Shown: positions 361-58,147, counted from the stretch's first letter. The stretch: 60,557 bases of DNA from Patescibacteria group bacterium (GCA_035506195.1 DATJPV010000001.1:1-60557), one strand, 5' to 3'. The notes: a model not told the origin generated them from the sequence alone. Numbers and translations: made by a program.

Positions 361-383
361 AGGTGCCCTTAGAAAACAAAGGT

Positions 384-2063: not shown

Positions 2064-2100
2064 CTTTTATCTTCGCAGAGCAAAAGAGAGCCTTGCCGTA

Positions 2101-2262: not shown

Positions 2263-2288
2263 GTGCCCCCCCTTGCCTCCGGTATCGG

Positions 2289-2510
2289 CTAAGATTGCAT
2301 CTTGCTGCTCAACAGGTCCTTTTCATAGCCGGTTGCGTCAACCCATGTCGAACCGCGTAGATCTTGTCTGTCCCTCAAAAGATCGCGTTTGCACACAAAC
2401 GCAATGACTACGGTCAAGCCGAAAACTACATAGTAGACGACACAGAGCAATACGCTTATAAGCACTTTCTGTGTTATATATACTACTTTCTGGGTTATTC
2501 TTTTAAACAT
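2289..2510 (-). CDS. Small membrane protein resembling the C-terminal half of SxtJ-family proteins
   Basis: 73 aa with one long hydrophobic segment (VLISVLLCVVYYVVFGLTVVIAFV) followed by KRDLLRDRQDLRGSTW. This matches my recollection of the SxtJ tail (TM helix, then G-K-D-P-L-x-R-K-x-D...S-Y-W). Its position between the amidotransferase and the DUF5989 ORF fits. Confidence 0.45.
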   Translation of the reverse strand: MFKRITQKVVYITQKVLISVLLCVVYYVVFGLTVVIAFVCKRDLLRDRQDLRGSTWVDATGYEKDLLSSKMQS

Positions 2511-2527
2511 GACGCAAGGGCTGATCG

Positions 2528-3535
2528 CTATTCAAACGCATAACCGAGTTTCTGCGCAATAGTATTCAAGAATTCCTTATCAAAATTAATTTCCAGGTTT
2601 TTCATCGCCTCTTCCCTGGTCAGGAGCCCTTCTCGTATAAGCTTGCTCATTTCTATATGGTAATGCGTATAACCGAAATACCGCATGGAATTATGCACGG
2701 AAAGGAAATTCAGATAACAATTAGTGGTGTGCGCCGGGTAGCTGGCCTTCGGGAATTTCCATTTAAGCTCTTTCTGTATCAACCCTACATACGAATCGGC
2801 ATCAAAAGGCAAAAACCAGTGGGGAGACAACACCACGCACCTCTGCCTTCTTTTCGCCCTGACCAAGACCTCCTCCATCGTCTCCGGAAAATCCTTATAG
2901 AGAGGGTCTTTCTTTACGTGTTCGTTCAAAAATTCCTTTGTGGCCTTGGCCATGGCTACAAATTCCGACTCATGTATATTGCATGCGCATCGAGACATAA
3001 GCGGCTGCTTTTTGGATTGCCCCTTGGTCCATCCTGCAATGATGATCGGGATGTTAAACTTGGCTGCTGTTTTGAAGGTAAGGTCCATATACCAGAGCGA
3101 ACAGAGGTGGCATATAACTGCCTTCGAGCCGGTCTTGAGTATTTTGGAAAACATACCCTTCATCGCATCTGTTTTGAAATACAGGAAATCCACCCCTAAT
3201 ACCTCTACCGCATTTCTCACGTTTTCCATGGCATCCTCGGCTTCAAAGCCATGGTCGAACGTAAACGCAAGGGGATTAAGCTTATATCTTTTCTTCATAT
3301 AATACAGCGCAGCCGTACTGTCTTTACCTCCGCTGCACATAACCAGGCAGTCGTATTCTCCGTGGCTTTTGTACAGATTGAGCATTTTGATGAACTCCGT
3401 TTCAAGGTTTGCCCCCTCCCCCTCCGTACGGTCACCCCTGGTCTTCTCGTATTCCAGACAGACATTACAAATCCCGTTTTCGTTTAGCCAGATATCCGGT
3501 TTGCTTTCCGGCAATACGCATTTTTTACAGATCAT
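2528..3535 (-). CDS. N-acetyl sugar amidotransferase (PP-loop ATPase, WbpG/WbuX-like)
   Basis: N-terminal zinc-ribbon-like MICKKCVLPESKPDIWLNENGICNVCLEYEK plus the PP-loop SGGKDS (CLVMCSGGKDSTAALYY). Length is 335 aa. Confidence 0.8.
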   Translation of the reverse strand: MICKKCVLPESKPDIWLNENGICNVCLEYEKTRGDRTEGEGANLETEFIKMLNLYKSHGEYDCLVMCSGGKDSTAALYYMKKRYKLNPLAFTFDHGFEAEDAMENVRNAVEVLGVDFLYFKTDAMKGMFSKILKTGSKAVICHLCSLWYMDLTFKTAAKFNIPIIIAGWTKGQSKKQPLMSRCACNIHESEFVAMAKATKEFLNEHVKKDPLYKDFPETMEEVLVRAKRRQRCVVLSPHWFLPFDADSYVGLIQKELKWKFPKASYPAHTTNCYLNFLSVHNSMRYFGYTHYHIEMSKLIREGLLTREEAMKNLEINFDKEFLNTIAQKLGYAFE

Positions 3536-3574
3536 TTTCCCGGTCCTCTACCTGATTGTTCTTCTGCTTTTTTT

Positions 3575-3603
3575 GTTATACCATCTTTACGTCGATATTT
3601 CAA
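3575..3603 (-). promoter_or_regulatory. Candidate sigma70-type promoter for the amidotransferase/carbamoyltransferase sub-operon
   Basis: The minus strand reads TTGAAA-N17-TATAAC in the 83-nt gap between 3619..5124 and 2528..3535. Confidence 0.3.
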
Positions 3604-3618
3604 GCCATTCGGCTAGGC

Positions 3619-5124
3619 CTATTTTCCGAATGCTTCGCGCATAATCGTGTCGGCGATATTTTCGGCCAAGAGCCGATTGCCCTTCTCGGTACAGTGGCCA
3701 AAGTCTCCGCCGAACATGTCAATAAAGTAATTCTTGTAGCCGTCCTGTTTCACGGCCTCCTTAAAGATATGCTCATTATCTACAAAAATGAGGCCTTGCG
3801 TATCGCCGGAGAAGATTTTCTTGAGCGGGTCCAATCCGCGTATGGGGTACTGTACGCACACCAGCCTTATGCCCCGCGCGGACAAGGCCGCTTTTAATCT
3901 GCGGTAATTGCGAATGGTATCCGGATTGTACGTTTTCTCTCTCAGCGCGTTTGCCTGGCGATAACATTCCTCTGCCATGGCCCTGTCTCCCGCCTCTTCA
4001 TAAATCACTGCCAATTTGCCGTAAGGGATATCGTTCTCCCGGCTTAAGGCGATGGCCTTCTTTAACAGGGCCTCTGCCTCGGGGAGCCTCTCCCACCTCC
4101 TGTAGACTCCTGCCAGCAGTATATAACACGGCGGGTCGTTCGGGTTAAGCTTAATGCATTCTGCAAGTACGTCTTGAGCCCGGGAAAGGTTTCCCTGCTC
4201 TCCGCAGACCCCCGCCAGGTCCGCGTAGGAGACGGAGTCATGCGGATCAAGCTCGACGGCCTTCGCAAAGGCCTGTTCTGCCTGAGAAAATGCGCGCTGT
4301 CTTCTATGCGTGGCTCCGAGTTCTCTGTAGCATGCCGTATCCCGGGGCTCAAGCGCAATGCCCTTTTTAAGGACCTCTTCTGCCTGGGGGAATTTTTTCT
4401 GCTCCCTGTATACCCCCCCTAACCCGGCATAACAGGCGGCACCTCGAGGGTTGCTTGCGATGCAGGCGGCAAACACATTCTCTGCCTGCAGGAATTTGCC
4501 TTCTGCTGCATACGCCTTACCCAGCTTATCATAGCAGCTGGTATCACAAGGGTTGCGCGCAATGCATCTTTTGAGCTCACCCTCCTGCGACAAAGATCCT
4601 TCTGGGGTATCAGGGTGCCTAAATGCGGTGATGAGGCGTAACCGCAAAAGGCTGATAAGTTTATATGTCTTCAATGATCTTAAAAAAGAGAGGGCGGCCG
4701 GAGAAGGGATTGACGCCGCGTAAGGCATGTGTTTTCCTCGGTCGTTTACGCCCATCATCGCTACGACCATGTCAGGCCGATAGATATCCAGGTTTTGCTC
4801 CAGGCGGCTGAGTATGCTGGCCGTAGTAGCCCCTGCCAGGCCTTGATCGATGACGGTAAAGGTAAGGCCTCTGCTGCGTTTATTCAGGGCTTCCGCAAGG
4901 AAAGCCGGGTATTGGTTGCGCGTCGTGGACTCCCCCAGGCAAAGGATGCGAAAGGCGCCCTTCTTCTGAAGGGCGAGCCTGTTGCGGTGTTCTTGCAGTG
5001 ACACCAATACAAACCCGCTTACGCGTAAGGCTATTTCAAGCACGATAAGGCACAGACACAGGCCGCATATGACCAAGGTCAGTTTTCCCGAAAAACGGGT
5101 ACGCGGTGGCAACGCCTTTTTCAC
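3619..5124 (-). CDS. Membrane-anchored SGNH hydrolase with six TPR repeats inserted between catalytic blocks III and V
   Basis: N-terminal TM helix. Block I is ILCLGESTT, block III is AMMGVNDR, and block V is GGDFGHCTEKGNRLLAENIA at the C-terminus. Six 34-aa TPRs lie between blocks III and V (CYDKLGKAYAAEGKF..., CYAGLGGVYREQKKF..., and so on). The GTG start overlaps the upstream stop (GTGA). Confidence 0.75.
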   Translation of the reverse strand: MKKALPPRTRFSGKLTLVICGLCLCLIVLEIALRVSGFVLVSLQEHRNRLALQKKGAFRILCLGESTTRNQYPAFLAEALNKRSRGLTFTVIDQGLAGATTASILSRLEQNLDIYRPDMVVAMMGVNDRGKHMPYAASIPSPAALSFLRSLKTYKLISLLRLRLITAFRHPDTPEGSLSQEGELKRCIARNPCDTSCYDKLGKAYAAEGKFLQAENVFAACIASNPRGAACYAGLGGVYREQKKFPQAEEVLKKGIALEPRDTACYRELGATHRRQRAFSQAEQAFAKAVELDPHDSVSYADLAGVCGEQGNLSRAQDVLAECIKLNPNDPPCYILLAGVYRRWERLPEAEALLKKAIALSRENDIPYGKLAVIYEEAGDRAMAEECYRQANALREKTYNPDTIRNYRRLKAALSARGIRLVCVQYPIRGLDPLKKIFSGDTQGLIFVDNEHIFKEAVKQDGYKNYFIDMFGGDFGHCTEKGNRLLAENIADTIMREAFGK

Positions 5125-7118
5125 TGTTGTGCCTGCTTTCTATGGGAATCAAGCAGCTTCAGGAATACCGGATCGACGCCGTATCCTAATGCGCTTACTT
5201 TATCGCAATGTGCTATAGCCAAATCGAACTTTTTTTGCTGAAAATAAAATACTGCCAAATTAAAATGCGCCGTGGCGAATCCCGGGTCGACCGTCAGTAT
5301 GCGATTCCATAATTCCAGTGCCTTATCGATATCTCCGCTGTCGGCATAGGTAGACGCCATATTATTGTATGCCTCCAGGTACCCCGGGTTAATCTCGATT
5401 GCTTTCCGGTACGCCTGTATCGCTGCCTGGTAATCTTTAGCTTTATCATACGCATTTCCCAGGGAAAAATAGTGCGCCGCAGAAGCCGGATTGAACATCG
5501 CTGCCTTCTTATAAGAATCGACCGCCTCCCTGTATAACCCCTTGCCTTCAAACGCAAGGCCAAGGTCATTATATGCCACATCCAGGCCGGGGAGGCCGCC
5601 GTACAAGACAACTGCCCTCTCAAGCTCTCCCTGCGCTTCCTGCAACATTCCCTTCGCGCAATAGCCTGCGCCCAAATTCTTATGATACAGCGCGGTATCT
5701 GGTTCCAAGCGCACCGCAATGCGATACTCTTCTATCGCCTTATCCAAAGCTCCGTCTTTAAGAAAAGATGTCCCCATGCTCGCATGCGCCCTTGCGCTGC
5801 GGGGGTATCGTTTTACCATTTCTGACGACACCGTAACATTATTCGCCCATGTATCGTTGCCGCGTATGGTCAATAGGGCACAGGAGGCCAGAAACAGCGC
5901 GGCGGCAAAGATTGCGGCGCGGCGTTGCCAACCGTAGCGGGCCGCATGGCTGAGGCGGCCAGTCCAGGCGGCCAGTAACCCCGCAACCGCAAGACAAAAA
6001 CCGACGCTGGGCAGGTATAGATAGCGGCTGGCCATGAAATTTACGATTGGCCATATATTAGATACCGGTAATAAAGTTACAAAGAAGTACATAATGGAGA
6101 ACGCCACCAGGCCCGATATGTTTCGTAAGCGTACCGCCGTGGTCAAAAGGACGATGATCAACACAAAAGAAGCCATGACTGCGGGGGCGAGGAATGAGTG
6201 TGCGATGGAAAGATGAAGCTCGCGCACTACGATCGGTATGCCGATCGGAAAGAATAGCCAGCGGATATAATCGAGAAAGGCCTGCGACATGGTAATCGCG
6301 TTCGTATAAAAACTGCCTCCCGGATATCCCACGTGCGGTTCGCTGGTGTTTCTCATAAGTATGAATCTGACCCACAGGTAAAACAGGAGCACGGCGATAT
6401 GCCATGCATAACGCCTTAGCCGGCCGGCCAGGGGTTTCTTTTTCTCGGCGTAAGGGCCCCAGAAACGATCATACAAGACCAACACAAAAGGCAGCGTGAC
6501 GGAGATCTCCTTGGAAAACAGGGCTAATAGAAATGCCGCCAGCGATACCGCCTGGGCATATAGTTTTTTTCTGGCCGCATACCGATCGCTTATAATAAAA
6601 AAACCAAAGGCAGTCGCGAAGAAAAAGAACGCTAGCAGATCTTCTCTGAAAGATATTACGTTGACGGCTTCGCTATGGACGGGATGAACCGCAAACAGCA
6701 AAGAAGCCAACAGCGCAATCCCCCTGTCTTTTACCAGCAGTTGCGCAAGCCAGAAAAGCAAGAGCGCATTGGCTATATGCAATGCGATATTGGTAAGGTG
6801 GTACCCGAAAGGGTCGAGCTTCCAGACGGCGTAATCGACAAAATAAGAGGCGGTGACAACGGGTCGGTAGGTCATCTCTCCCGAGCCTCTTGCAAGATCA
6901 GGGGTATATAGGTGCTGCAGGCGCACATAAGGCGTCAGATAATCCCTGGTGAACAGAAGCGGTATATGCGCCCAGGATTTGACGAAATTGTTTTCAACGA
7001 TCACGGAGGCATCGTCCCAGACGAAGGAATGCTTCAGCGTATTTGCATAGACAACTGCGGTAAGAAAAATGACCAGCATGACTGACGACCTAACGCTGAT
7101 AGCATTACGCATACGCAA
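5121..7118 (-). CDS. TMTC-like GT-C membrane glycosyltransferase (DUF1736/PMT_2-like) with C-terminal TPR array
   Basis: N-terminal TM helix followed by SFVWDDASVIVENNFV, then about 10 TM segments including GYHLTNIALHIANALLLF, then about six C-terminal TPRs. It is a paralog of 7174..8955. The first codon is TTG; an ATG lies 2 codons downstream. Confidence 0.8.
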   Translation of the reverse strand: MRMRNAISVRSSVMLVIFLTAVVYANTLKHSFVWDDASVIVENNFVKSWAHIPLLFTRDYLTPYVRLQHLYTPDLARGSGEMTYRPVVTASYFVDYAVWKLDPFGYHLTNIALHIANALLLFWLAQLLVKDRGIALLASLLFAVHPVHSEAVNVISFREDLLAFFFFATAFGFFIISDRYAARKKLYAQAVSLAAFLLALFSKEISVTLPFVLVLYDRFWGPYAEKKKPLAGRLRRYAWHIAVLLFYLWVRFILMRNTSEPHVGYPGGSFYTNAITMSQAFLDYIRWLFFPIGIPIVVRELHLSIAHSFLAPAVMASFVLIIVLLTTAVRLRNISGLVAFSIMYFFVTLLPVSNIWPIVNFMASRYLYLPSVGFCLAVAGLLAAWTGRLSHAARYGWQRRAAIFAAALFLASCALLTIRGNDTWANNVTVSSEMVKRYPRSARAHASMGTSFLKDGALDKAIEEYRIAVRLEPDTALYHKNLGAGYCAKGMLQEAQGELERAVVLYGGLPGLDVAYNDLGLAFEGKGLYREAVDSYKKAAMFNPASAAHYFSLGNAYDKAKDYQAAIQAYRKAIEINPGYLEAYNNMASTYADSGDIDKALELWNRILTVDPGFATAHFNLAVFYFQQKKFDLAIAHCDKVSALGYGVDPVFLKLLDSHRKQAQQ

Positions 7119-7173
7119 AGCCCGGGTCTTTCTTCTGTTATGCTAGAGAATCGGGGACAGGCAGGCGATACGT

Positions 7174-8955
7174 CTAGTATCCCAACTGAGAAAGCTTCCG
7201 TAAGTTAGCCGCGGCTCTCTTATTACCCGGGGCCAACGTTAATATCTTCTCCCACAACCTTCGTGCCTGGTCATATTTTTTCATGCGCGCATACGTAACC
7301 GCCAAACCATTGTATGCCCGGATGCATCGTCCATCAAGCTGGATAGCTTTCTCGAAGCACGCCACCGCCTGCTGATAAAACCTCTGATCGCCAAGCGCGC
7401 CGCCGAGGTTGGCGTACGCTGTCGCATACCCAGGATCCAATTGTAATGCCTTAGTGAATTCCTGGGCAGCTTCTTTAAGCATTCCTTTTTCATAGAAGCA
7501 GACGCCCAGCTCGTTGTAATCTTTGGCGTAGCCGGGGTCAAGGCTTAAGGCAACCGTGTATTCCCGTATCGCCTCATCCGCTATCCCGGCTTTCCTGAGC
7601 GCCTCCCCCAGGCCGCTATGCGCCGAGGCGCTGCGCGGATACTGTTCAGCCATATTCGACCAAAAGATCATATTGTTTGCCCATCCGATATTCTGGATAA
7701 AAGTAAATTGGGCGTACCCGAGCAAAATAAAGACCATGGCATATCGGGATATTTTTCTTAAGGCATCCTGCGAAACCCGGCGCAAGCGCATATCCGGCAG
7801 CTCGATCAGGCAGGCCGCCAGGAACACGCAGAAACCGGCCCCGGGCAGATAAAGATAGCGGGCAGCTATATAGTTGGCCAGGGGAAACACCATATTGCTC
7901 ACCGGGATAAGCGTGACCGCAAACCAGCAGGCCCCAAAGACACACAGGGGAAAGCGTTTGCGCATCTTTATCGCAGCCGCGCACAAGACCGCCACCGCCA
8001 TCAGAGAAGCCAATGCGCCCGGTGAAAATAAAGAACGGCAGACAAATGCAGGGTCATCCGGTAACGTAGGATGGATATTAAGCGGAATCAGGAGCCATTG
8101 CAGATAGGTCACGAACACCTTGGACATGGTCAGCATGCGCGTGTAAAAACTGGACATGGGGGGCCAGACGGCCGGCCGGGAGACGTCCCCGATCAGAAAA
8201 AACTTTACTGCGGCATAACAGGCCAGGGAAACGAGGTATCCGGCATAGCAGGCCCGGACCCGGGAAAGGGCGCTTTTTAGCCTTTGCCGGGAGATGAAAA
8301 AATAGTCGAACACGAACAATACCAGAGGCAACGTAATGGCCATTTCCTTGGAAAATAGGGCCAGCAAGAACGAAGCGTTGGACACAAGATACAGGAACAT
8401 TTTCTTTCTGGGCGGCTGGTTCTGGGCGTGGATGAAAAGTATAGACGCTCCCACAAAGAAAAAGAAAGCAAGCAGGTCCTCGCGGAAAGAGACCACATCG
8501 ACCGCCTCCGTATTAACGGGGTGCAGCGCGAAGAATAAGGACGCCAACAGCGCAATGGAAGGATTACGCGTAACCAATCTAAGCAGCATATACAACAGCA
8601 GCGCATTGGCCAGATGCAACGCCAGGCTACTCAGGTGATACCCGAAAGGATTCAGTTTCCAAAGCGCATAATCCACAAAGTAAGAAGCCGTCACTACCGG
8701 CCGGTACGTTAACTCCCCCGAGCCTATATCCCGTTCTCCCAGATAATCAAGATCGGAAATCTTGGTCAGATAGGCCCGGTGAAAAAGCATGGGGACATTG
8801 CGCCAGGCTTTCACGAAGGCGTTTTCAACGATAACGCTATAGTCATCCCACACAAAGCCGTTTTTGAGGGAATTTGCGTATGCCAGGATGGTAAGCAGGA
8901 GTATCAGTACCACGGCCACCAGGCCGGGGCGCTGCGGCAGGAACCCGTTACGCAT
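7174..8955 (-). CDS. TMTC-like GT-C membrane glycosyltransferase with C-terminal TPR array
   Basis: Contains GFVWDDYSVIVENAFV and GYHLSSLALHLANALLLY, a polytopic core and about four C-terminal TPRs. It overlaps the upstream GT9 gene by 8 nt. Confidence 0.8.
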   Translation of the reverse strand: MRNGFLPQRPGLVAVVLILLLTILAYANSLKNGFVWDDYSVIVENAFVKAWRNVPMLFHRAYLTKISDLDYLGERDIGSGELTYRPVVTASYFVDYALWKLNPFGYHLSSLALHLANALLLYMLLRLVTRNPSIALLASLFFALHPVNTEAVDVVSFREDLLAFFFFVGASILFIHAQNQPPRKKMFLYLVSNASFLLALFSKEMAITLPLVLFVFDYFFISRQRLKSALSRVRACYAGYLVSLACYAAVKFFLIGDVSRPAVWPPMSSFYTRMLTMSKVFVTYLQWLLIPLNIHPTLPDDPAFVCRSLFSPGALASLMAVAVLCAAAIKMRKRFPLCVFGACWFAVTLIPVSNMVFPLANYIAARYLYLPGAGFCVFLAACLIELPDMRLRRVSQDALRKISRYAMVFILLGYAQFTFIQNIGWANNMIFWSNMAEQYPRSASAHSGLGEALRKAGIADEAIREYTVALSLDPGYAKDYNELGVCFYEKGMLKEAAQEFTKALQLDPGYATAYANLGGALGDQRFYQQAVACFEKAIQLDGRCIRAYNGLAVTYARMKKYDQARRLWEKILTLAPGNKRAAANLRKLSQLGY

Positions 8956-10174
8956 TGCTGCCTCCCGCCTGTTGCACGAGCGCCCGGTATACTGCTTCGG
9001 GGCTAATGGCTTTCAGGCAGACATTATCGCGGCATCTTGAGTCTCTATGATTGAATACCGAAAGGCACGGCGAACAAGGCCAGTGCGAATAAAATACCCA
9101 ATTATTACCGCCGAGAGGGCCAAAGACCTGGGGTGATTCCGGGCCGAAAATGATGAATTTCTTAAGCGGGGTCAGCATCCCCAGATGCGCCAAGCCGCAG
9201 TCGTTCGAAATCAAGGCCTCTGCCAGGCTGAAGAGCTCCAAAAGCTCACCCAGGGTAGTCTGGTTCAACATGTTCACGCAGCGGCCGTTGCGTATCTGCT
9301 CCTGCAGCGCGCCTGCCTTATCGGCTGCGCCGTCGGTGCCGACAAGTACTATGCAACTGCCTTCATCTTTAAGTATGAGCTTTGATAAAACGATAAAGTT
9401 GTCAAACGGCCATTCCCTCAACGGCAACACCCCCTCCCCGGGGTTAAGCAGGAATATCTTGTATTTCTCGGGGCTGGCTCCGCGTTCCCTCAGTTTGCCG
9501 AGGAGCCTTGTCTTTGTGGCGGCATCTGATGCATATCTGGGGAAAACGATATCGGCGTCATCGCTGGCCCCGGCCAGTTCTGGCGTCGTCTTGCTGGCCC
9601 CTGCGGCGGCCTGGCTAAAAGACAGATAATTCCTGGCTATATGGCATAAAGGGTTGTACTGCACTCCGTGCGTAAGAAGGCCTCCGCGGTAAAGCCCCTC
9701 GAATGTATAGCGATAAAAACCGACTCTCTTACGAGCGCCTGTCAAATACGCGAAGAGCGCAGAAATGCGCGAAAAAAATTCCAAGTCGAATACGATATCG
9801 ATCCTTTCCCGGCGCAGGCGGTTAATAGCTTTTATGATGTCGACCGTAAAGGCACGCATGGTTTCGCGGATGCTCAGGATATTTTTTTCGGGGATGAGTG
9901 CTCCCTGCACGCTAAAGACTCCCTTGTTCCTGGCGAAGGTTACAAAAAACAGTTCCGCCTCGGGGTACTCCTTCTTGATCTTACGTACAAGAGGGTAGGC
10001 CAGGATGATGGCCCCCAATTCGGATAACTTGATGAATGCGATTTTCCTGACGGGCGCATCTTCCTGCTGCCTGTGCATCCTGAAGGGCTGCCGAACGCGA
10101 TGCGCGATGCTCGCCAAAAAACACAAAGGCACCCCTACCCAACGGTCAATTTTTCTTGCCTGCGCAACGTTCAT
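8948..10174 (-). CDS. Glycosyltransferase family 9 (heptosyltransferase-like)
   Basis: Shows the GT9 pattern: IAFIKLSELGAIILAYPLVRKIKKEYPEAELFFVT, NDCGLAHLGMLTPLKKFIIFGP, and a C-terminal Cys-rich WPCSPC...C...C tail. Confidence 0.85.
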   Translation of the reverse strand: MNVAQARKIDRWVGVPLCFLASIAHRVRQPFRMHRQQEDAPVRKIAFIKLSELGAIILAYPLVRKIKKEYPEAELFFVTFARNKGVFSVQGALIPEKNILSIRETMRAFTVDIIKAINRLRRERIDIVFDLEFFSRISALFAYLTGARKRVGFYRYTFEGLYRGGLLTHGVQYNPLCHIARNYLSFSQAAAGASKTTPELAGASDDADIVFPRYASDAATKTRLLGKLRERGASPEKYKIFLLNPGEGVLPLREWPFDNFIVLSKLILKDEGSCIVLVGTDGAADKAGALQEQIRNGRCVNMLNQTTLGELLELFSLAEALISNDCGLAHLGMLTPLKKFIIFGPESPQVFGPLGGNNWVFYSHWPCSPCLSVFNHRDSRCRDNVCLKAISPEAVYRALVQQAGGSNA

Positions 10175-10226
10175 TTCGTCTGGCTCCGTAACGCTACAGT
10201 GTGTTTCATTATACCACGGAGAGTTG

Positions 10227-12137
10227 CTATTTTCTCAGTGATTTTAGGAGTTCCAAGAAGCCGGGATTGGGCCGATAGCCAAGGGCAACCGCCTTCTCAT
10301 AAGAAGCGATCGCGGACGTATAGTCTTTCAAAAAATAGTACGCTTCCGCAAGGCCCGCATGTATCCAGGCCTGATCGGGCCCGTGTTGCAGCGCCCGGCT
10401 ATAATCGGAAACGGCTTCTGCGTATTTACCGCTGGCGTAATAGATGAAACCTCTGTGCTGATAGGGCTGTGCGCTATCGGGGTCGCGCAACAATTGCGCG
10501 GTATAGTATCTCACCCCCTCTTCACAGGTACGAGAGAACTGTTCCGCGAACCCCGGACAGCCGGGGCAGATGCGCAGCGCGCGTTTGAAATCAAGAACTG
10601 CCCTATCATACTTTTTATCGGCGCAAAAGAGGAAACCCCGGTTGTAATATGCCTGCATATACCCCGGATTTATCTTAATTGCCCGCGAATAATCTTGAAG
10701 GGCCTGGGCATTGGCACCCTGTTGCTGATATGCGAGGCCGCGATTATAGTAGCCGCCGGCATACTCCGGTGCCAAACTCAAGGCCGAGGTATAATCCCGG
10801 ACCGCTGCGTCATAGCGCCGGAGCTGTTGATACGCCAGAGCTCTTTCGTTATAGGGCCTGGCCTTGCGCGGAGACTTTGAGATCACGTCGCTCCACAGGC
10901 TTATCTCGTCTTTCCAGATAAAGTTCCTGCGCCAGGAAAGGGCCGCGCATGTAATCAATATCGAGGAAGCCGCGGCTATCGCGATCAAGGGCTTTTTTCT
11001 GGCCAGTGCGTAATAGAGGCCGGCGGCGGCCAGCAGGCTTACCCCCGCCATCGGCAGATACAGGCGGTGTTCAACGATCACGTCTAGCAGGGGCATGACA
11101 CTTGATTCCGGCAGCAGGGTAATAAAGAACCAAAAGATGCCATATGAAACGACGCGGGACCGGCGGAAGGCAACAAGCCCATACCACAGGATCAGGCATA
11201 GTATGCCCAGGCTTATCAGAGTCGGGCCATCCCCTAGGCCACGGGAGAGGGGATAATCGTAGTCGAGATTCTGATGCAAGGGCAAGCCTAACAATCTGAC
11301 GTAGGTGATCATGACGCGAAACTGGGTAAGCAGATATTGGGCGCAGTGAAAAAGCGGCTGCCCCATAAAACGCTGCATATCGGAAGCCGGCGCCCAGCTC
11401 AGGCGAGTAGATAACAGCGTCAGGGGGACAACGGGCAGCAGGCAGCAGAAAGGCACTACATAACGATAGCGGCAACGCTGTTCAGGGCGCAGGAAGTATG
11501 CGTGGTACAATACGATCATCAGGGGCAGGGTGAACATAGTCTCTTTGGTAAACATGCCGACTGCCGCCACCGTAAAACTGAGCCCGTAATACCTCCTGCC
11601 TGCAACGGGACGGCCGGCAATAACGCGCATGGCCTGGATATACAAACACAGGGACGCCAGATATAAAAAGGTAGACAGGATCGTGACGCGCTGAAAAATA
11701 TAATTGACTGCCTGGGTTTGAATAGGATGCACCAGGAACAACAAGGCGGCAAAAAGCGCCAACGGCTTGGCGTTACGCCTCAGGCCGGCGTCGTTGAGCG
11801 CAGGAGAACAGAAGCTTTGGTACGCCAAACAAAGCACCAGGCCCGCAGTCAAGATATGCAACAGGACGCTGATAAAATGGTAGCCAAAAACTGCGTCTGC
11901 CTGCAGGCGATAGGTCAAAGCAAAGGACAGGAGCCCGAAAAAACGCGTGGGCCAAAAATGCCATATGCCCCCCAGGCTCCCGCCTGGTTTGATCGCGTCA
12001 TTCTCAAGGATAAAGGCGATGTCATCAAAATGGAAAGAATTCAAAAAACTATTAGCGTACACTGCGGTACCTGCGCATAGCAGCGCAAGAAATGAAAGAA
12101 TACGCCAGTCGGTTATCCGAAACCCGCGGAATCTCAT
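10227..12137 (-). CDS. TMTC-like GT-C membrane glycosyltransferase with C-terminal TPR array
   Basis: The start is refined from the track value (12344) to the ATG at 12135-12137 (MRFRGFRITDW...). That ATG overlaps the upstream stop as ATGA and yields an N-terminus colinear with the paralogs. Motifs are SFHFDDIAFILEND, GYHFISVLLHILTAGLVL and about five TPRs. Confidence 0.8.
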   Translation of the reverse strand: MRFRGFRITDWRILSFLALLCAGTAVYANSFLNSFHFDDIAFILENDAIKPGGSLGGIWHFWPTRFFGLLSFALTYRLQADAVFGYHFISVLLHILTAGLVLCLAYQSFCSPALNDAGLRRNAKPLALFAALLFLVHPIQTQAVNYIFQRVTILSTFLYLASLCLYIQAMRVIAGRPVAGRRYYGLSFTVAAVGMFTKETMFTLPLMIVLYHAYFLRPEQRCRYRYVVPFCCLLPVVPLTLLSTRLSWAPASDMQRFMGQPLFHCAQYLLTQFRVMITYVRLLGLPLHQNLDYDYPLSRGLGDGPTLISLGILCLILWYGLVAFRRSRVVSYGIFWFFITLLPESSVMPLLDVIVEHRLYLPMAGVSLLAAAGLYYALARKKPLIAIAAASSILITCAALSWRRNFIWKDEISLWSDVISKSPRKARPYNERALAYQQLRRYDAAVRDYTSALSLAPEYAGGYYNRGLAYQQQGANAQALQDYSRAIKINPGYMQAYYNRGFLFCADKKYDRAVLDFKRALRICPGCPGFAEQFSRTCEEGVRYYTAQLLRDPDSAQPYQHRGFIYYASGKYAEAVSDYSRALQHGPDQAWIHAGLAEAYYFLKDYTSAIASYEKAVALGYRPNPGFLELLKSLRK

Positions 12138-13870
12138 TGCTTCTCCATTCCTAACACATACCTGCCTGAGATCAATGCCGCCTCGCTCGGCTCCTGGTGT
12201 ATGGCCCCCTTTGCCTTTAAAGAAGCAATTATCTGTTTCATGCTTTCTAAGTCGTCGGTTACCAACACCGGGGCAAAGCCGCCGCGGCTGCGGTTGGCCA
12301 TACACAGAAGGTCCGACGTCAAGTCCTCGGGGTTCGTAAAACAAAGGATAGGCCTGCTGCCTGCGTAGTATTCGATAATCGGATGGATCTGGGGGTAGCC
12401 GGGCACGTATTCCGGAGCCAGAAAAGCGTGGAACCCTTTAAAGCTGAAAATGACGTGGTCGGAATCGGCCAGAAACGAACGCAGTGCCTTTGCCAGCAGC
12501 ACATCGGGATGCTTCCTGAGTTTTGCCCGGTCAAATACCGGGTCCCGGGCCATACAGAAAAAAGAATGCCAGAATAAAACGAGGGCAAAACCGAACAAGA
12601 ACAGGTGCCCGGCAGCGGCGGCGTGCCGCACCGATGGGCCGGTGCCGGGAAGCGGACGATACGCCCCTCGCAACCAGGCCTGGGCCTGTCTCCAGAAGGC
12701 CCAGGTCGCTGCGGCCGCCAAAAGAGCGGCTGCGGGGGCCAGCTGCCTGATCTGGTAGCGCATGGCTGCCCCAAACGGAACTACGGCCAGAAAAGCCGCG
12801 GCGCAGGCCGACAAGAGCGCCAAGAGTCTCCAGGAAGGCAATTCCGAAACCGTGCTATCACGGTGCGTAAAGAATGCCAGGTGGAGCAGGTACAAAACAG
12901 CCAGCAGCACAAGTAATACTACAGGACGATAAAGCGCATTCAATGCCCCTGTCGCAGCATAAAAAAACAAAACAGGCAAGTTGGTTATGCCAGCAGACCA
13001 CCCTCCTCTTCGCGCAAAGGCATCTGCCAGGTCCGTCAGCGCATCGGCAATGCCCAGATACCATGCGTTCTGTAGTAATTTAATACCGCCGGCAACCAGC
13101 ACAGCGGCAGCAAAAGAACAATACCACCTCCAACGAAATCGGCGCAGCTCCAGCAGATCCCAACCGATAAGCCAGACATAGCTGAACAGGATCGAATCCA
13201 GGCTCGAAAGGGACATGATGAAGAAAATGAGCCAGGCGCAGGCCCCGTAGACCTTGCGGTGCTGCGGCGCGCCTGCCCGGGTAGAAAGAACGACGGCGAG
13301 CATAAAAGAAAACCGTAATATGTCATCCACCGGCTGAGTAGCCAGGCTGTCCGCATAACCTAAGAATGCCCCTGACATGCCGTAAAAAAAAGCAGCCAGA
13401 ACAGCTACGGCAGGACAGGCGATCTTTACAAACAACACATACATTAGAATAAGGGCACCAAGGGACAAAAGTACCGAAAGCGCCCTTAAAAAAAAGATCC
13501 GCTCCAGTCCTGCCGTGTATAACAAAGCGTACGGAATAAGGTAGCCGCAAGGGTAATGCGTGTACCATAGGCGAGGGCCGACGCGCGGCGAGGTACCTGG
13601 AGCAATGCCGTGGGCATGATGCCGCAGGGGCGGCTCATCGAGCGCTCTGACGCAAGAGGCGTATCCTTGCGGAATGAACAAAAGCTTGTGCGCAAGCCAT
13701 CCGTCTCTTTGCCACTGGTGCAGAGAAAGCATAGTCTGCGCATCTCCCGGCCCCCAATCGCTCCAACGGTATTCGTCGCAGGCCCGGAATAAAAGAAAAA
13801 TCAGTAGGCAGGCAAAAAACACGGCGGCAACCCTATGCCACGTCCTTGCCGGTACGTCATCGTTTATCAT
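12134..13870 (-). CDS. Polytopic integral membrane protein with a C-terminal soluble domain; possible GT-C-type transferase
   Basis: 578 aa with at least 10 hydrophobic segments and an acidic first loop (CDEYRWSDWGPGD). I recognise no family-defining motif. The gene is markedly more GC-rich than its neighbours, and coding is supported by the ATGA coupling downstream. Confidence 0.55.
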   Translation of the reverse strand: MINDDVPARTWHRVAAVFFACLLIFLLFRACDEYRWSDWGPGDAQTMLSLHQWQRDGWLAHKLLFIPQGYASCVRALDEPPLRHHAHGIAPGTSPRVGPRLWYTHYPCGYLIPYALLYTAGLERIFFLRALSVLLSLGALILMYVLFVKIACPAVAVLAAFFYGMSGAFLGYADSLATQPVDDILRFSFMLAVVLSTRAGAPQHRKVYGACAWLIFFIMSLSSLDSILFSYVWLIGWDLLELRRFRWRWYCSFAAAVLVAGGIKLLQNAWYLGIADALTDLADAFARRGGWSAGITNLPVLFFYAATGALNALYRPVVLLVLLAVLYLLHLAFFTHRDSTVSELPSWRLLALLSACAAAFLAVVPFGAAMRYQIRQLAPAAALLAAAATWAFWRQAQAWLRGAYRPLPGTGPSVRHAAAAGHLFLFGFALVLFWHSFFCMARDPVFDRAKLRKHPDVLLAKALRSFLADSDHVIFSFKGFHAFLAPEYVPGYPQIHPIIEYYAGSRPILCFTNPEDLTSDLLCMANRSRGGFAPVLVTDDLESMKQIIASLKAKGAIHQEPSEAALISGRYVLGMEKQ

Positions 13871-13887
13871 GTCAGCTCACCGCCATC

Positions 13888-15906
13888 TCAATGTTGTCTC
13901 CCGGAAGCCTGCTGCAGCCGCTGGATAAACTCGGGGTCAAGCCTTCTGTCCAGCTCCTCTACCCTGCGCACATCCAACCAGCTCTTCTCGTAGTCTTTTA
14001 TGAAGAAATACGCCACCGCCCGATAGGCATACGCCCACATCGCTTTCGGATCCATCTGTATTGCCTTATTGTAATCCGCGATCGCCTGATCAAAGTCCGC
14101 TTTCATGCCGTACACCAATCCTCGATAGATATAGGCCTCGACATAGCCGGGACGAACGGCGATAGCCCGGTTGTAATCGGCGATAGCCATATCTAACGAT
14201 CCTCTTGTCCGATACACGCCGGCTCGGTTATAGTATGCCTCAGACAAAGACGGATCAAGAAGGACGGCCTTGTTGTAATCGGAAAGGGCCGGGGCCAAAG
14301 AACCCTTAGCCTGATAGGCGTTCCCCCGGTTGTTATACGCCCTGGCGTAGCCGGTATTGATGCGCAGCGCCTGATCGTAATCTGCGATAGCTTCGTCAAG
14401 CCTGCCCTGTCTTCTAAAGAGGACGCCGCGACTGTTATATGCTTCGCTGCACGAAGGGTTTATGGTAATAGCCTGGCTATAATCCGAAATAGCCTGCTCA
14501 AGTTGTCCGCTGCCGGCGTACAGGTTTCCCCGGCCCATGTACGCCAGGATCGAACGCGGGGCGACGGCAATCGCCTTGTTAAAATCAGAAAGCGCCTCCC
14601 TGGTCTTACCCTTATTGTAATACGCATTCCCCCGGATAATATATCCTCTTTCTTTTTGCGGAGATTTATCGACTACATCGGTCCAGAGGCTAATCTCGTC
14701 TTTCCAAACAACGTTTCTGCGCCAGGTCAATACCGAATACCAACAGATGAGCACGGCAACAACGGCGACCGTCCATTTCCAGTTCCGGCGCGCCAAGAGA
14801 CGGTAAAGTACGCTTACCATCACTATGCCGTAGCCGAAGATCCCCAGGTAGAGGCGGTGCTCGAAGATGACATCGGCAAGGGGGAAGATACTGGAATCCG
14901 GAGACAGCGATAGGAAAAACCACAGTATGCCGAAGGAAACCAGCCGATGCCTGGCAAATAACCTCTTCGCAGCGGCGAGCCACGAAACGACCACCAGGAG
15001 GCTAGCCAGGGTCGGAAAATCCAGCAGGGTCTTTGTGATCGCGTAATCGTAATCGAAGTTTTGATGCACAGGCAATACCAGCAGCCGCATATAAGTAACC
15101 ATAACCCGCAGCTGGGTCAAAAAATAATACCCCATCGCGCGCAAGGCGCTCTGATATTGCATGAGTTTGTGCACATCGTCGAACGTCACCGGCTTGGCAT
15201 ACGCCATCAGCATGGGGATGACGGGCAGCAAGATGAAAAACGGCAGGACATACCGCCACGCAAACGGTCTTTTCTCCTTGAAAAAACATATCTCGAACAA
15301 CAATACGGCAAACGGCAAAGTCACGGCATTTTCTTTGGTAATCATACAGACCGCTGCGATGCACCAGGAGAATGGGTACCAGGGCACCGTTGCGCAGCCT
15401 TTGATGCGCCGCAGGCACGCTAGCGCATAACAGCAGAGTGCGGCCAAATAAAAGAAGCCCGCCAGCTCCGTTGCCCGCTCGTGGATATAGGTCACTGATT
15501 CTGTCTGGAGCGGATGGGACAGAAATACCAAGGCCACAAGCAGAGAAAGCGTGCCGGCGTGCTGCGAAAAGGCCTCCTTTTCCATGGCGGGGCTGGCGCA
15601 TATCAGTTGCAACAGGCGCCATACCAATAGCGCCGAACCAATGTGAATAAGCACATTGATAAGGTGGTAGCCCTGCACATCCAGTTGTCCGAACCGGTAA
15701 TTAACGGCGAACGTCAGGTAGGTGACAAAACGCGTGGGCCAAAAATACCACATGCCGGCCAGGCTAGACAGGTCCTTGATACGGGTATTGGTAATGATGG
15801 AGTAGCCGTCATCAAAATGAAAGGCTGCCTGAAAGGTGTTGAGGTAGGCCAACACCCCGACGCAGCCGATGAGCATGACCCCCAGAAGCTTTCGAGAAAC
15901 CGTCAT
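13888..15906 (-). CDS. TMTC-like GT-C membrane glycosyltransferase with seven very regular C-terminal TPRs
   Basis: Contains AFHFDDGYSIITNT and GYHLINVLIHIGSALLVW, a polytopic core, and seven 34-aa repeats of the form AY-NRG--Y---G----AI-DY--AI---P. Confidence 0.8.
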   Translation of the reverse strand: MTVSRKLLGVMLIGCVGVLAYLNTFQAAFHFDDGYSIITNTRIKDLSSLAGMWYFWPTRFVTYLTFAVNYRFGQLDVQGYHLINVLIHIGSALLVWRLLQLICASPAMEKEAFSQHAGTLSLLVALVFLSHPLQTESVTYIHERATELAGFFYLAALCCYALACLRRIKGCATVPWYPFSWCIAAVCMITKENAVTLPFAVLLFEICFFKEKRPFAWRYVLPFFILLPVIPMLMAYAKPVTFDDVHKLMQYQSALRAMGYYFLTQLRVMVTYMRLLVLPVHQNFDYDYAITKTLLDFPTLASLLVVVSWLAAAKRLFARHRLVSFGILWFFLSLSPDSSIFPLADVIFEHRLYLGIFGYGIVMVSVLYRLLARRNWKWTVAVVAVLICWYSVLTWRRNVVWKDEISLWTDVVDKSPQKERGYIIRGNAYYNKGKTREALSDFNKAIAVAPRSILAYMGRGNLYAGSGQLEQAISDYSQAITINPSCSEAYNSRGVLFRRQGRLDEAIADYDQALRINTGYARAYNNRGNAYQAKGSLAPALSDYNKAVLLDPSLSEAYYNRAGVYRTRGSLDMAIADYNRAIAVRPGYVEAYIYRGLVYGMKADFDQAIADYNKAIQMDPKAMWAYAYRAVAYFFIKDYEKSWLDVRRVEELDRRLDPEFIQRLQQASGRQH

Positions 15907-15912
15907 CTAGTT

Positions 15913-17055
15913 TTATTCCATTAGTTTGAGTCTTTTGATTTCTCCCAAAAGCAACTGCGACTCGATTTCGGTGGCGGCATCGCTGGGGTGGATATCATCC
16001 AAAAAATATGTCTCATTTTTAGGGATGCCCTTTTCTAGGTCCACAAGCGGCACATTCAGCTCACTGGCCACCCTTACGATGGCGCGATTGAATAGGTCCA
16101 TGCCGTACTCCATCGATTCCACGTCGGGATATGCGCCGTTTTGGCTGCAGTGCAGAGGCGCAAAATAGAGTCGCGCCTTTTCGCTGTCACTAAGATTTTT
16201 GTTGTAAATATACGGCTGGGTGGCAACTAACACCCGCACGTTATCTTCGCGGATCAACCTGATCAACCGCTTCAGGTTCTCTTCAAAAACCGGCAGGCTT
16301 TGGAACTGGCGTATGGCAGCCGGATGGTTAAGCCTTCTTACCTTCTCTGAAAAATCAGGGTCTTCGCCGTCTATGTGGGCAAGCTGCGCAGGGTCAGGCG
16401 CAAAAAGCATGTTTTTTATCTTTTTGTAAAGCAGGAATTCGGTGAACGGGAAATATTTAACGCGGGTCCGCTCCAGCCCCACGACCGGCCCGAGATAATG
16501 CGAATAGTCCCGCCTGAACGTATCCCCCGGCCGGCACCACCATTCAGGAGCAAAACTCCGGAACAGGTCGTTTACCGCGTGCATAATAATCACCAGCTGC
16601 GGCTTATAATAACGCACGTAAAAAAGATACCTGATAATCGAGTGCTCCGTCGAATACCAATCACAGGCCGCATTTTCGACTTGTATCTTCCTGTACGGAT
16701 ACTCCTGCCTCAGTTTTTTCTGGAGTTTTGCCGGATAGGTCTGTTCGTAGGGAAGCGTGTAGCTATAACTGGTTGAGCCGCCAAGCACGAATATCCGGTA
16801 GGTATCCGGATCGTCGCTTACCGGGTCTCCGCGGAAAGAATCCGCGTTGACATGCAGGTCGCGGTCGAATTGCGGATACCGTTTAGGCCGTATCTGCAGA
16901 AACGGGTCTACCTCAAAAAAGCCGTAGCGGCGGTGAGTGATCAAGCGGACCTTAAGGTACTGTTGAACCTGCAAGAATATTTCGCCCAGCGTCCCCGCGA
17001 CGATGAGCAGAAAAATAACCAGTAACACCCGGAATTTCTTTTTGTGAGTACTCAT
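15913..17055 (-). CDS. Membrane-anchored SGNH/GDSL-like hydrolase
   Basis: N-terminal TM helix (VLLVIFLLIVAGTLGEIF). Block I is IFVLGGSTSYS, block III is IIMHAVNDL and block V is FLDDIHPSD. Confidence 0.65.
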   Translation of the reverse strand: MSTHKKKFRVLLVIFLLIVAGTLGEIFLQVQQYLKVRLITHRRYGFFEVDPFLQIRPKRYPQFDRDLHVNADSFRGDPVSDDPDTYRIFVLGGSTSYSYTLPYEQTYPAKLQKKLRQEYPYRKIQVENAACDWYSTEHSIIRYLFYVRYYKPQLVIIMHAVNDLFRSFAPEWWCRPGDTFRRDYSHYLGPVVGLERTRVKYFPFTEFLLYKKIKNMLFAPDPAQLAHIDGEDPDFSEKVRRLNHPAAIRQFQSLPVFEENLKRLIRLIREDNVRVLVATQPYIYNKNLSDSEKARLYFAPLHCSQNGAYPDVESMEYGMDLFNRAIVRVASELNVPLVDLEKGIPKNETYFLDDIHPSDAATEIESQLLLGEIKRLKLME

Positions 17056-17103: not shown

Positions 17104-18603
17104 TCACAGCGGCCGTACCCGGATTGCCCTGGTCGGCCGGACCGGACACTTATTCTGGCAAATCCCGCAGCCAATACATAATTGAGCCTCTACATACGGT
17201 TTAAGTACTGCGGGGCCGTACAGCGAATCCTCCTGGAGCTTGATTGCTTTACTGGAGACCGGACAATGCTCCTGGCAGACGATGCACTGCTCATGGCGCG
17301 CCCAGGGCAGGCACATTGCACGGTCTATAACGGCCAAACCCAAAGATGTCCTATGTTTTTGTTCCACCGAAAGCGACGGGATTGCCTGCGTAGGGCATAC
17401 TTTGCCACAGAGAGTACAGCTGTATTCGCAATAACCTGTCTCGGGCACAAGCTGCGGCGTCCAGAGGCCGGCAATACCGGTCTGCAGCATTACCGGCTGC
17501 AGGCCGTTGGTAATACAAACCTTCATACAATTGCCGCAGCGTATACAGCGGTCCAGGAATTCCTTCTCCGGAGGCGCTCCGGGAGGTCTGATGACCGCCC
17601 GCCTTGTCGCATCGAGCGTCTCCTCCCCTCTGAACCGGGCCCCTAACGCCAGAAGCAGCGAACAGGCCAAGAATAAAAAATCGCGGCGATTGATCCCCGC
17701 GCCCCCTGAAGGCGCCGGCTTAGTTTCCGCGGAAGGCAAAAACGACCACTGAAACCGGGTGGCCTGCACAGGGCAATCGTAGAGGCAATCGAGACAAAGG
17801 ATACACTCCCCTTTTATGTAACTGGCATCATCCTTTATGGCTCCCATACGGCAGCGGCTTTTGCATTGTCGACAATGCGTGCAGCTTGTCACCGCACGGC
17901 CCAGAAGCGCAACGGAAGCGAAAAACGCATACAGTGCGCCCAGGGGACAGAGCGCGCGACACCAAAAACGTTTCAATACGGCTGACGTCCCTACCACAAA
18001 AATGAAAAAGAGCAAAATAATAAAAGAATGAGAAAAATAGTAGATATTGACCCCCAGGAGGGATGCTTTCAGCGCCCGATACAGGTCAAGAACTCCCCCC
18101 GTCCAACCAAGATCCCTCACCAGGAAAACAAACGCCTTATTCATGGCAAAGGTCAATCCGGGGATGAGATTAAGGGAAACAGACCTTGCCATAATGACCA
18201 TGGGGTCAAAGACCCAGGCTAGTTGTATGCCGAATACGGCGCATACAAGTATTATCAACAAGATGTAAAACTTAACCGAACGCATGCGCCTGTTATGCGC
18301 GTCGCTGACATCGGATCTTTTACGGTTCAGCAGACCGGCGGCATCGATACAGGCACCTAAAGGGCATACCCAGCCGCAAAAAAATCTTCCCACTGCCAAG
18401 GTAAGCAACAATAGGCAGGCCGATACCGCAAGCCCCGACAGCAACAGGCGGCCGCTTAAGGAGACTGCCGCCATGATGAGGGGGTCAAGCGTAAAAAAAG
18501 TCTCGGGCGGCAGAAGCCCTTTCAGGGGATAGGTAGTAGACCAGAGGATATATACAAACAGACACAGAAAAAAAGCCTGAGAAAGTCTCCGCAAGATGGC
18601 CAT
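17104..18603 (-). CDS. NapH-like membrane ferredoxin fused to a NapG/MauM-like 4x[4Fe-4S] ferredoxin (polyferredoxin)
   Basis: The N-terminal half has TM helices with two CX3CP motifs (CGWVCPLGA, CRALCPLGA) and two ferredoxin motifs (CTHCRQCKSRC, CILCLDCLYDCP). An internal INRRDFLFLACSLLLALGA segment follows. The C-terminal half is colinear with NapG: VIRPPGA...CIRCGNCMKVC, CEYSCTLCGKVCP, CIVCQEHCP, CIGCGICQNKCP. Confidence 0.8.
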   Translation of the reverse strand: MAILRRLSQAFFLCLFVYILWSTTYPLKGLLPPETFFTLDPLIMAAVSLSGRLLLSGLAVSACLLLLTLAVGRFFCGWVCPLGACIDAAGLLNRKRSDVSDAHNRRMRSVKFYILLIILVCAVFGIQLAWVFDPMVIMARSVSLNLIPGLTFAMNKAFVFLVRDLGWTGGVLDLYRALKASLLGVNIYYFSHSFIILLFFIFVVGTSAVLKRFWCRALCPLGALYAFFASVALLGRAVTSCTHCRQCKSRCRMGAIKDDASYIKGECILCLDCLYDCPVQATRFQWSFLPSAETKPAPSGGAGINRRDFLFLACSLLLALGARFRGEETLDATRRAVIRPPGAPPEKEFLDRCIRCGNCMKVCITNGLQPVMLQTGIAGLWTPQLVPETGYCEYSCTLCGKVCPTQAIPSLSVEQKHRTSLGLAVIDRAMCLPWARHEQCIVCQEHCPVSSKAIKLQEDSLYGPAVLKPYVEAQLCIGCGICQNKCPVRPTRAIRVRPL

Positions 18604-18612
18604 AGACGACGG

Positions 18613-55836: not shown

Positions 55837-55839
55837 AGT

Positions 55840-58145: not shown

Positions 58146-58147
58146 TG

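Follow-up and report, generated by a model that had tools for sequence, protein, structure and literature searches.

Four TMTC-like glycosyltransferase genes in one operon-like run of a Patescibacteria group bacterium: a candidate periplasmic glycosylation module

A stretch of 60,557 nucleotides from a Patescibacteria group bacterium (DATJPV010000001.1 of assembly GCA_035506195.1; hereafter the window) carries four paralogous genes, named A to D, whose products join a polytopic membrane domain to C-terminal tetratricopeptide repeats (TPRs), as do the animal proteins TMTC1-4. From sequence comparison and structural modelling it is very probable that A-D belong to the TMTC family, adopt the GT-C fold and have a periplasm-facing topology, and their description as periplasm-facing GT-C transferases of this family with an intact predicted donor and metal site is well supported. 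The fuller reading that we prefer, in which A-D are active polyprenyl-phosphate-sugar-dependent enzymes of the TMTC family that transfer to protein within a coupled module, is more tentative, and we place it somewhat below an even chance.

The TMTCs have reportedly been recognised only recently as protein O-mannosyltransferases, and their enzymology and structure are said to be still thin. The bacterial homologues described here form a very large family (~34,000 clusters at 50% identity, E<=1e-10) whose membrane domain is without a Pfam model. Prokaryotic homologues of TMTCs had already been noted, in passing (PMC7801869), and the array in itself is not unusual; what is new is that the TMTC link is demonstrated despite the Pfam blind spot, that the size of the family is measured, and that recurrent cassettes (GT9/SGNH, DPM1-like GT2 and pilin/PilB) suggest testable acceptors and donors. 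Acting on proteins, these enzymes would represent a further, major route of O-glycosylation in diderm bacteria and tractable models in which to study how TMTCs work; acting on glycans, they would form a new class of TPR-guided enzymes that decorate the envelope from the periplasm.

Gene layout and domain plan of the four paralogs

ORF (open reading frame) calling places all four genes on the minus strand, at 5121..7118 (A, 665 aa from a TTG start, with an ATG two codons downstream), 7174..8955 (B, 593 aa), 10227..12137 (C, 636 aa) and 13888..15906 (D, 672 aa). The ORF of C extends to 12344, and its ATG at 12137 overlaps the stop codon of the upstream gene as ATGA. In A the membrane domain, with 11 transmembrane (TM) helices, is encoded by nt 5853..7118 and the TPRs by nt 5121..5852. 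The loop-1 motifs read FVWDDASV, FVWDDYSV, FHFDDIAF and FHFDDGYS in A, B, C and D, with the codons of the aspartate pair at 7011..7016, 8842..8847, 12021..12026 and 15808..15813, respectively. Behind the membrane domain, where Pfam matches TPR_1 (E 1e-22 to 1e-53), there are ~6 TPRs in A, 4 in B, 5-6 in C and 7 in D, the repeats being of an 'NLG' type in A/B and of an 'NRG' type in C/D.

The membrane domains are paralogs, with similarity far above chance. Pairwise comparison gives 47% identity for A/B (E ~1e-109) and 43% for C/D (E 1e-90 to 1e-104), whereas pairs across these two groups share ~26% (E 1e-18 to 1e-26), which separates a VWDD subtype (A, B) from an HFDD subtype (C, D). The C/D proteins also have a short first external loop (EL1), by ~25 residues.

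The four genes belong to a co-directional run, which begins at its upstream end with an SGNH hydrolase gene (15913..17055) and continues, after 6 nt, with D and, after another 17 nt, with the gene of a polytopic protein X (12134..13870). X and C share the ATGA overlap; 52 nt further on follows a GT9 gene (8948..10174), which overlaps B by 8 nt, and B is separated by 55 nt from A. A is joined through a GTGA overlap to a second SGNH gene with TPRs (3619..5124), followed after 83 nt by a WbuX-like amidotransferase gene (2528..3535) and, after a gap of 464 nt, by a NodU-like carbamoyltransferase gene (384..2063).

This layout is in most respects the one described in an earlier sequence-only reading of the window: the positions of the four paralogs, their F-x-(W/F)-D-D motifs, the 4-7 C-terminal TPRs, the two subtypes, the interleaved GT9, polytopic and SGNH genes, and the ATGA/GTGA coupling were all recovered. 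A further motif that it assigned to the polytopic core of all four, GYHL..LH..NA, is complete in A and B; C and D retain just GYH and the second H.

Homology to the TMTC family

As animal references we used the alignment of TMTC1-4 N-terminal regions that is supplied with Eisenhaber et al. (PMC7801869). In BLASTP comparisons all four bacterial membrane domains match animal TMTC1-4 with 45-105 bits and 24-32% identity, the best cases extending over nearly the full length; the highest score is that of A against zebrafish TMTC1 (105 bits, 27.6% identity, aa 19-381). Alignment of a profile of the bacterial membrane domains to the TMTC alignment by hhalign gives a probability of 100 and an E-value of 7e-51 over 398 columns. 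The TMTC-like domain plan proposed from the sequence thus stands. The two bacterial subtypes are approximately as distant from each other as either is from the animal proteins.

We compared the TMTC motifs M1-M7 (DD, SHKSYRP, RxD, KE(T/Q)xxT, DW, PxxP and ERxxY). Both M1 (DD) and M4 (KE..T) are present in A-D. The helix LLFAVHP(V/I)H(S/T)EAV is retained, with substitutions in B-D; the P-x-SN element is also retained, its N being replaced in C/D. The Arg and Tyr of M7 are also retained, offset by one position in C/D, and in M6 the second Pro alone is kept; in A/B, M2 reads YRP and M3 reads RED. Fifteen positions of the membrane domain are invariant among 68 sequences, including DD, HP and KE, which correspond to the donor and metal-site motifs of TMTCs.

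A-D share with the TMTC (GT105) proteins most of the characters that define them, namely homology, fold, topology, DD, KE..T and C-terminal TPRs. The homology runs along the whole 11-TM domain with the same order of elements (cytoplasmic N-terminus, DD in loop 1, (Y)RP, the HP-x-H-x-E helix, KE..T, P-x-SN and (E)R..Y), the TPRs are C-terminal on the non-cytoplasmic side, and there are several paralogs per genome. The differences are that A-D are bacterial, so that their equivalent compartment is the periplasm and undecaprenyl phosphate would replace dolichyl phosphate as the carrier, and that they are encoded in operons with GT9, SGNH and PMT_2-like genes.

Fold and membrane topology

AlphaFold2 models were obtained for full-length A (predicted local distance difference test score, pLDDT, 95; predicted TM-score, pTM, 0.91) and for aa 1-408 of D (pLDDT 93.8, pTM 0.94), and both have 11 TM helices. 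When the membrane-only model of D was compared with the PDB by Foldseek, the top 14 matches were all GT-C enzymes (probability 0.99-1.0, query TM-score, TMq, 0.37-0.52), with AglB, EmbB, ArnT, STT3, PglB and EmbC followed by Pmt4, ALG3, AftA and Pmt1; a TMTC structure was not among the PDB matches listed. The full-length model of A retrieved TPR proteins only (OGT, SPY and designed CTPRs), its TPR domain being closest to those of OGT and SPY. With the membrane domain as query, neither sequence nor profile searches of the PDB gave a match. The models thus substantiate the GT-C fold that had been proposed from the motif pattern.

Topology was assigned from the helix count of the models and from the density of Lys and Arg in the loops. 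The frequency of K+R per residue is 0.25 in the predicted cytoplasmic loops of A vs 0.07 in the periplasmic ones, and 0.23 vs 0.09 in D. By this bias the DD loop lies in the periplasm, together with the TPR domain and the remaining motif loops, and so the earlier expectation that the DD motif faces outward, not the cytoplasm, is upheld. The published topology of TMTCs agrees with this placement of DD and TPRs (PMC7801869, PMC6801728).

The structural comparison also bears on the chemistry of transfer. The highest Foldseek scores belong to the oligosaccharyltransferases AglB, STT3 and PglB (TMq 0.41-0.52, vs 0.38-0.40 for ArnT/Pmt), which would fit an en bloc transfer of oligosaccharide from undecaprenyl pyrophosphate, in the manner of O-oligosaccharyltransferases or ligases, or a polymerisation of the kind proposed for TfpW, the Pseudomonas aeruginosa pilin D-arabinofuranosyl transferase, which has been suggested both to polymerise and to transfer D-arabinofuranose. 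The coupling to a GT9 would be sensible if GT9 helps to build the donor by extending its lipid-linked form, and the Y-x6-P part of the proline motif of TfpW and Emb is conserved (Y271, P278). The scores, however, are modest and mirror the overall number of helices, the donor-site motifs agree with the ones modelled for the monosaccharide donor Dol-P-Man (dolichyl-phosphate mannose) in TMTC, and the sugar synthases that recur beside family members are of the DPM1/ArnC monophosphate type rather than phosphoglycosyltransferases. We consider en bloc transfer or polymerisation unlikely.

Family size and distribution

A phmmer search with the membrane domain of A against 1.84 billion representatives at 50% identity gave 69,144 matches at E<=1e-3, 33,838 at <=1e-10 and 2,198 at <=1e-30. 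Close relatives are overwhelmingly from Candidatus Omnitrophota. NCBI labels the homologs 'tetratricopeptide repeat protein', JGI labels some of them 'protein O-mannosyl-transferase' and others PilF or TadD, and IMG-style annotation already names some O-mannosyltransferases.

Labels of the PilF, TadD and TPR kind, and the finding that searches of Pfam and NCBIfam with full-length A-D return TPR models only, would suit non-catalytic TPR scaffolds or pilotin-like proteins in which the membrane domain is a mere anchor. This explanation is very improbable in view of the 15 invariant membrane-domain positions and the GT-C fold (pLDDT 94-95); moreover, a degenerate homolog at 43014..45089, described below, shows what loss of the motifs looks like.

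A scan of species-representative genomes identified 79 loci, nearly all labelled as metagenome-assembled genomes and a few as single-cell assemblies, none of them from a named cultured species, distributed among Omnitrophota, Planctomycetota, Elusimicrobia, Latescibacterota, Acidobacteriota, Deltaproteobacteria, Thermodesulfovibrionales, Ignavibacteria and others. A tblastn search against plasmids gave no match. Together with four other loci (L001-L004) the 79 loci of the scan made up a census of 83 neighborhoods, in which up to 8-10 kb on each side were annotated with hidden Markov models. The scan was seeded with an alignment of the VWDD subtype only, a mixed-subtype alignment having had no conserved stretch, and the census is therefore biased to that subtype.

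A single TMTC-like gene is found in 57 of the 83 loci, two in 17, three in 6, four in 2 and six in 1. Since 26 of the 83 loci are multi-copy, tandem arrays are ordinary for the TMTC-like family, and the view that the multi-paralog array in the window is something special is not borne out. Parts of the run are conserved in close relatives: L002 has the order GT9-B-A-SGNH/TPR-WbuX (70% identity) and L003 the order SGNH-D-X-C (76% identity).

Proposed mechanism and the nature of the acceptor

In the mechanism that we favor, each enzyme is inserted such that the N-terminus stays cytoplasmic, with 11 TM helices, and its TPR solenoid extends into the periplasm, as the models and charge counts show. 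The motifs and the homology suggest that donor and metal are bound at a periplasm-facing site made up of DD in loop 1, K-E..T in loop 3, H-P after TM3 and R..Y in loop 5. In the cytoplasm, a GT2 of the DPM1/ArnC type would charge undecaprenyl phosphate with one sugar, and after flipping, the GT-C enzyme would move this sugar onto an acceptor presented by the TPRs, most likely Ser/Thr residues of secreted or envelope proteins. The paralogs with their different TPR types may each choose different acceptors, as TMTC1-4 do, and the cytoplasmic GT9, the PMT_2-like GT-C and the membrane-anchored SGNH esterases or acyltransferases could further modify the same glycoconjugates as parts of one coupled module. 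The use of an undecaprenyl-phosphate sugar as donor is indirectly supported by DPM1/ArnC-like GT2 genes, which lie within ~2 kb of TMTC-like genes in 9 related loci and of which one is present in the window.

Several lines of evidence favor a protein as the acceptor. The sole characterised sequence relatives of A-D are protein O-mannosyltransferases (PMC7801869). TfpW, a bacterial O-glycosyltransferase of pilin, shares their layout; the likeness, one of architecture, comprises a length of ~650 aa, a cytoplasmic N-terminus, 11 predicted TM helices, a DDx motif in periplasmic loop 1, Y-x6-P in loop 4 and a periplasmic C-terminal TPR domain. TPR fusions accompany protein acceptors in the characterised GT-Cs (TMTC and TfpW), the paralogs and their TPR types are diverse, and the TPR domain of the model is closest to those of OGT and SPY.

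Links to pili in other members of the family point in the same direction. In 12 of the 83 loci a PilB/GspE-type ATPase gene (T2SSE + MshEN) is no more than 7 kb away from a TMTC-like gene, and in five of them (L026, L050, L060, L066 and L080) no more than 80 nt. In L055, L069 and L083, genes for N-methyl prepilins separate PilB from the TMTC-like gene; in L077 they are found 201 nt upstream of the latter, and in L066 and L053 downstream. Some distant family members (L055, L066, L069, L077 and L083) thus adjoin pilin genes as tfpW adjoins pilA; the paralogs in the window differ in having no such link and in not retaining the full Y-x6-PF-x7-P motif.

A number of observations weigh against a protein-transferring TMTC-type system. 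In Pfam, neither DUF1736 (PF08409) nor PMT or PMT_2 matches A-D or their isolated membrane domains even at E<=10, contrary to what the sequence-only reading had anticipated, and DUF1736 was not among the precomputed Pfam domains listed for 240 homologs. We attribute the missing DUF1736 match to divergence of loop 4, which in A-D is too far from the TMTC segment for PF08409, and not to absence of homology. In C/D one R is all that is left of M2, and likewise of M3, the SHKSY part of M2 being absent, and M5 (DW) is DY in C/D and is absent from A/B, where it could not be aligned. A literature search for a characterised bacterial TMTC-like enzyme found none, so that A-D have no biochemically characterised close relative in that literature. 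As for pili, the linked TMTC-like proteins form a distant subclade (111-250 bits to A/B), the adjacency counts are raw numbers without a whole-genome null, and no prepilin-like ORF is present in the window.

The last group of adverse observations concerns the partners of the genes. GT9 genes lie directly upstream of A/B-clade genes in L002, L005, L010, L012, L018 and L032, and of a more distant TMTC-like clade in L027 and L034; L084 has a GT9-TMTC-like pair alone, surrounded by unrelated genes, and L085 a cassette of the order SGNH-GT9-TMTC-like-TMTC-like. SGNH genes with TPRs adjoin TMTC-like genes in L002, L008 and L057 as well. The nearest structure to the GT9 is WaaF, a heptosyltransferase of lipopolysaccharide (LPS), the SGNH, WbuX-like and NodU-like sugar-modifying genes of the run are typical of LPS and O-antigen loci, and a homolog of X is found in an ADP-heptose gene cluster.

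These partners invite the explanation that the same enzymes and donor chemistry serve an envelope glycan or glycolipid (LPS core, O-antigen, capsule or exopolysaccharide), in a periplasmic decoration like that of ArnT or GtrABC. GT9 would then build the cytoplasmic part of the glycan, SGNH proteins would attach O-acyl groups or take them off, and docking of the TPRs would be on the export or assembly machinery or on the polymer, as in BcsC, PgaA and AlgK. The GT9 neighbors of the A/B clade (in L084 and L085 as well as the six loci above) agree with such a role, the pair in L084 amounting to a stand-alone two-gene module, and so does the degenerate fifth paralog, which bears a CBM48-like module in place of TPRs. 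The fold itself is non-discriminating, as ArnT and Emb are among the top structural matches. On the other hand, the nearest characterised sequence relatives, the TMTCs, act on proteins (PMC7801869), the glycan-acting Emb enzymes have carbohydrate-binding domains in place of the TPRs that are fused to TMTC and TfpW, which use protein acceptors, and other family members adjoin pilin genes. As the GT9, SGNH, WbuX-like and NodU-like partners are of a kind usual in LPS or polysaccharide pathways, a glycan comes close to a protein in likelihood as the acceptor; we treat it as a serious possibility, short of even.

Known systems of this kind resemble A-D in part. ArnT/PMT_2 and PMT enzymes (GT83, GT39), families to which X and the genes at 47213..50084 belong, combine the GT-C fold with an acidic motif in loop 1, take monosaccharides from polyprenyl-phosphate donors and have their active site on the periplasmic or lumenal side; A-D differ in having no match to the corresponding Pfam models (PF13231, PF02366), ArnT is without TPRs and acts on lipid A, and the PMTs carry MIR domains. 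GtrABC is similar in the logic of the system, in which a GT2 makes the undecaprenyl-phosphate sugar, the sugar is flipped and a polytopic transferase decorates outside the membrane. GtrC, however, is unrelated in sequence to TMTC, has no TPRs and acts on O-antigen, and a GtrA-like flippase was not identified beside the array.

Extending the protein-acceptor reading to the whole family leads to a broader and more doubtful proposal: Omnitrophota and other uncultivated diderm phyla might possess a general periplasmic protein O-glycosylation carried out by an expanded TMTC-type family, the prokaryotic root of metazoan cadherin O-mannosylation, with clade-specific acceptors (pilins, adhesins and other envelope proteins) and with GT9-TMTC-like-SGNH as a hitherto unrecognised module for protein-glycan maturation. 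We regard this as rather unlikely in its full form.

Other genes of the run

The GT9 gene, translationally coupled to B, encodes a cytoplasmic GT-B protein of the heptosyltransferase family (408 aa; Pfam Glyco_transf_9, 1.5e-16; NCBIfam heptosyltransferase II, 3e-22, below cut-off), with WaaF (1psw, 3.8e-8) as its best PDB match. The TMTC-coupled GT9s of the window and of L027 (5750..6994) have a C-terminal four-cysteine motif, CSPC-x11-C-x4-C, which suggests a candidate metal site. We take it to be reminiscent of the iron finger of TibC-type heptosyltransferases. An assignment of the GT9 as a protein heptosyltransferase of the TibC/AAH type was considered and dropped, since WaaF is its best-matching relative of known structure and the PDB search did not return TibC.

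X (578 aa, minus strand) is a divergent polytopic GT-C of the PMT_2/ArnT type with a small C-terminal soluble domain. X itself has no Pfam match, and it is placed in the PMT_2 family because its relatives match that model (PF13231 in 29 of 40 aligned relatives, best 5.3e-7), which confirms its description as GT-C-like; some of the relatives are named 'glycosyltransferase family 39 protein' by NCBI. The only match in a PDB profile search with X, to a designed protein, was spurious. Homologs of X are found elsewhere without TMTC-like neighbors. On a Nitrospiraceae contig (L087, ~1..8836) one is clustered with HldE-like (CTP_transf_like + PfkB) and GmhA-like (SIS) genes, together with GT2 and radical-SAM/SPASM genes, a context that hints at heptose as the sugar of the X/GT9 part of the module.

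The SGNH/GDSL hydrolase upstream of D (Lipase_GDSL_2, 4e-17) has a TM anchor at aa 10-28. The one downstream of A also has an N-terminal TM anchor, and approximately six TPRs split its catalytic blocks (GES-T at ~aa 63 and D-x-x-H at ~aa 470). Both are on the minus strand, as is the gene of the WbuX-like N-acetyl-sugar amidotransferase (NCBIfam TIGR03573, 8e-49, below cut-off). Just upstream of the NodU-like carbamoyltransferase gene, a small unannotated ORF (~2090..2250, minus strand) encodes a 53-aa hydrophobic peptide beginning MKKIWYIFKEMLHMIKKHKLYFLAPIFLLF, presumably resembling the small membrane proteins that often accompany NodU-like carbamoyltransferases.

Directly upstream of the array (17104..19608, minus strand) are genes for a NapH/NapG-like fused membrane polyferredoxin (499 aa) and for an Npun_F2552-family protein with a twin-arginine-like leader, followed by TatC (19568..20299), which was recognised by reading the sequence alone. 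These genes have no obvious link to glycosylation.

A fifth paralog and other glycan genes in the window

A fifth TMTC-like paralog (43014..45089, minus strand, 691 aa; hmmsearch 97.5 bits, E 4.6e-32) had been overlooked in the sequence-only reading. Its DD, HP and KE are replaced by ADLD, HY and RA, and its C-terminus has a weak match to Pfam CBM_48 (4e-5) and no TPR array, so it is probably non-catalytic or divergent. Its stop codon overlaps the start of a GH5 gene (40879..43017) as ATGA.

The GT2 gene at 53199..54239 (minus strand; Pfam GT2) encodes a protein of the GtrB/ArnC/DPM1 type, with a GT-A domain and C-terminal TM segments at 270-288 and 304-322. Its best NCBIfam matches are ArnC (2.5e-38) and PgfS (1e-30), with AglJ and PpgS also found, all below curated cut-offs, and it is a plausible candidate for a polyprenyl-phosphate sugar synthase. 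This agrees in type with the lipid-phosphate sugar synthase that had been proposed as the donor source of the array; its position does not favor that role. The gene is ~37 kb from the array in a separate glycan cluster, with housekeeping genes at 19.5-31 kb between them, and ~3 kb from two ArnT/PMT-like GT-C genes (47213..48799 and 48678..50084, minus strand; Pfam PMT_2, 1.9e-11 and 5.2e-8), whose products are more likely than the array to be clients of the GT2. As called, these two genes overlap by 122 nt, and the downstream one probably starts later.

The GtrB/ArnC-like GT2 gene is flanked by a run of five radical-SAM genes (51776..59659, minus strand), two of them B12-binding and three with SPASM domains; a second carbamoyltransferase gene (50066..51769) and the two PMT_2 genes adjoin this run. 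B12-radical-SAM genes are also found near TMTC-like genes in 5 related loci and in L001. At 31315..34499 (minus strand) a lysine-2,3-aminomutase-like radical-SAM gene precedes two paralogous ATP-grasp genes of the D-Ala-D-Ala ligase family; GT2 genes follow and then, in the opposite orientation, a Wzy_C gene (O-antigen ligase/IctB-like, 35697..36848, plus strand). These genes may encode a pathway for an amino-acid-decorated glycan.

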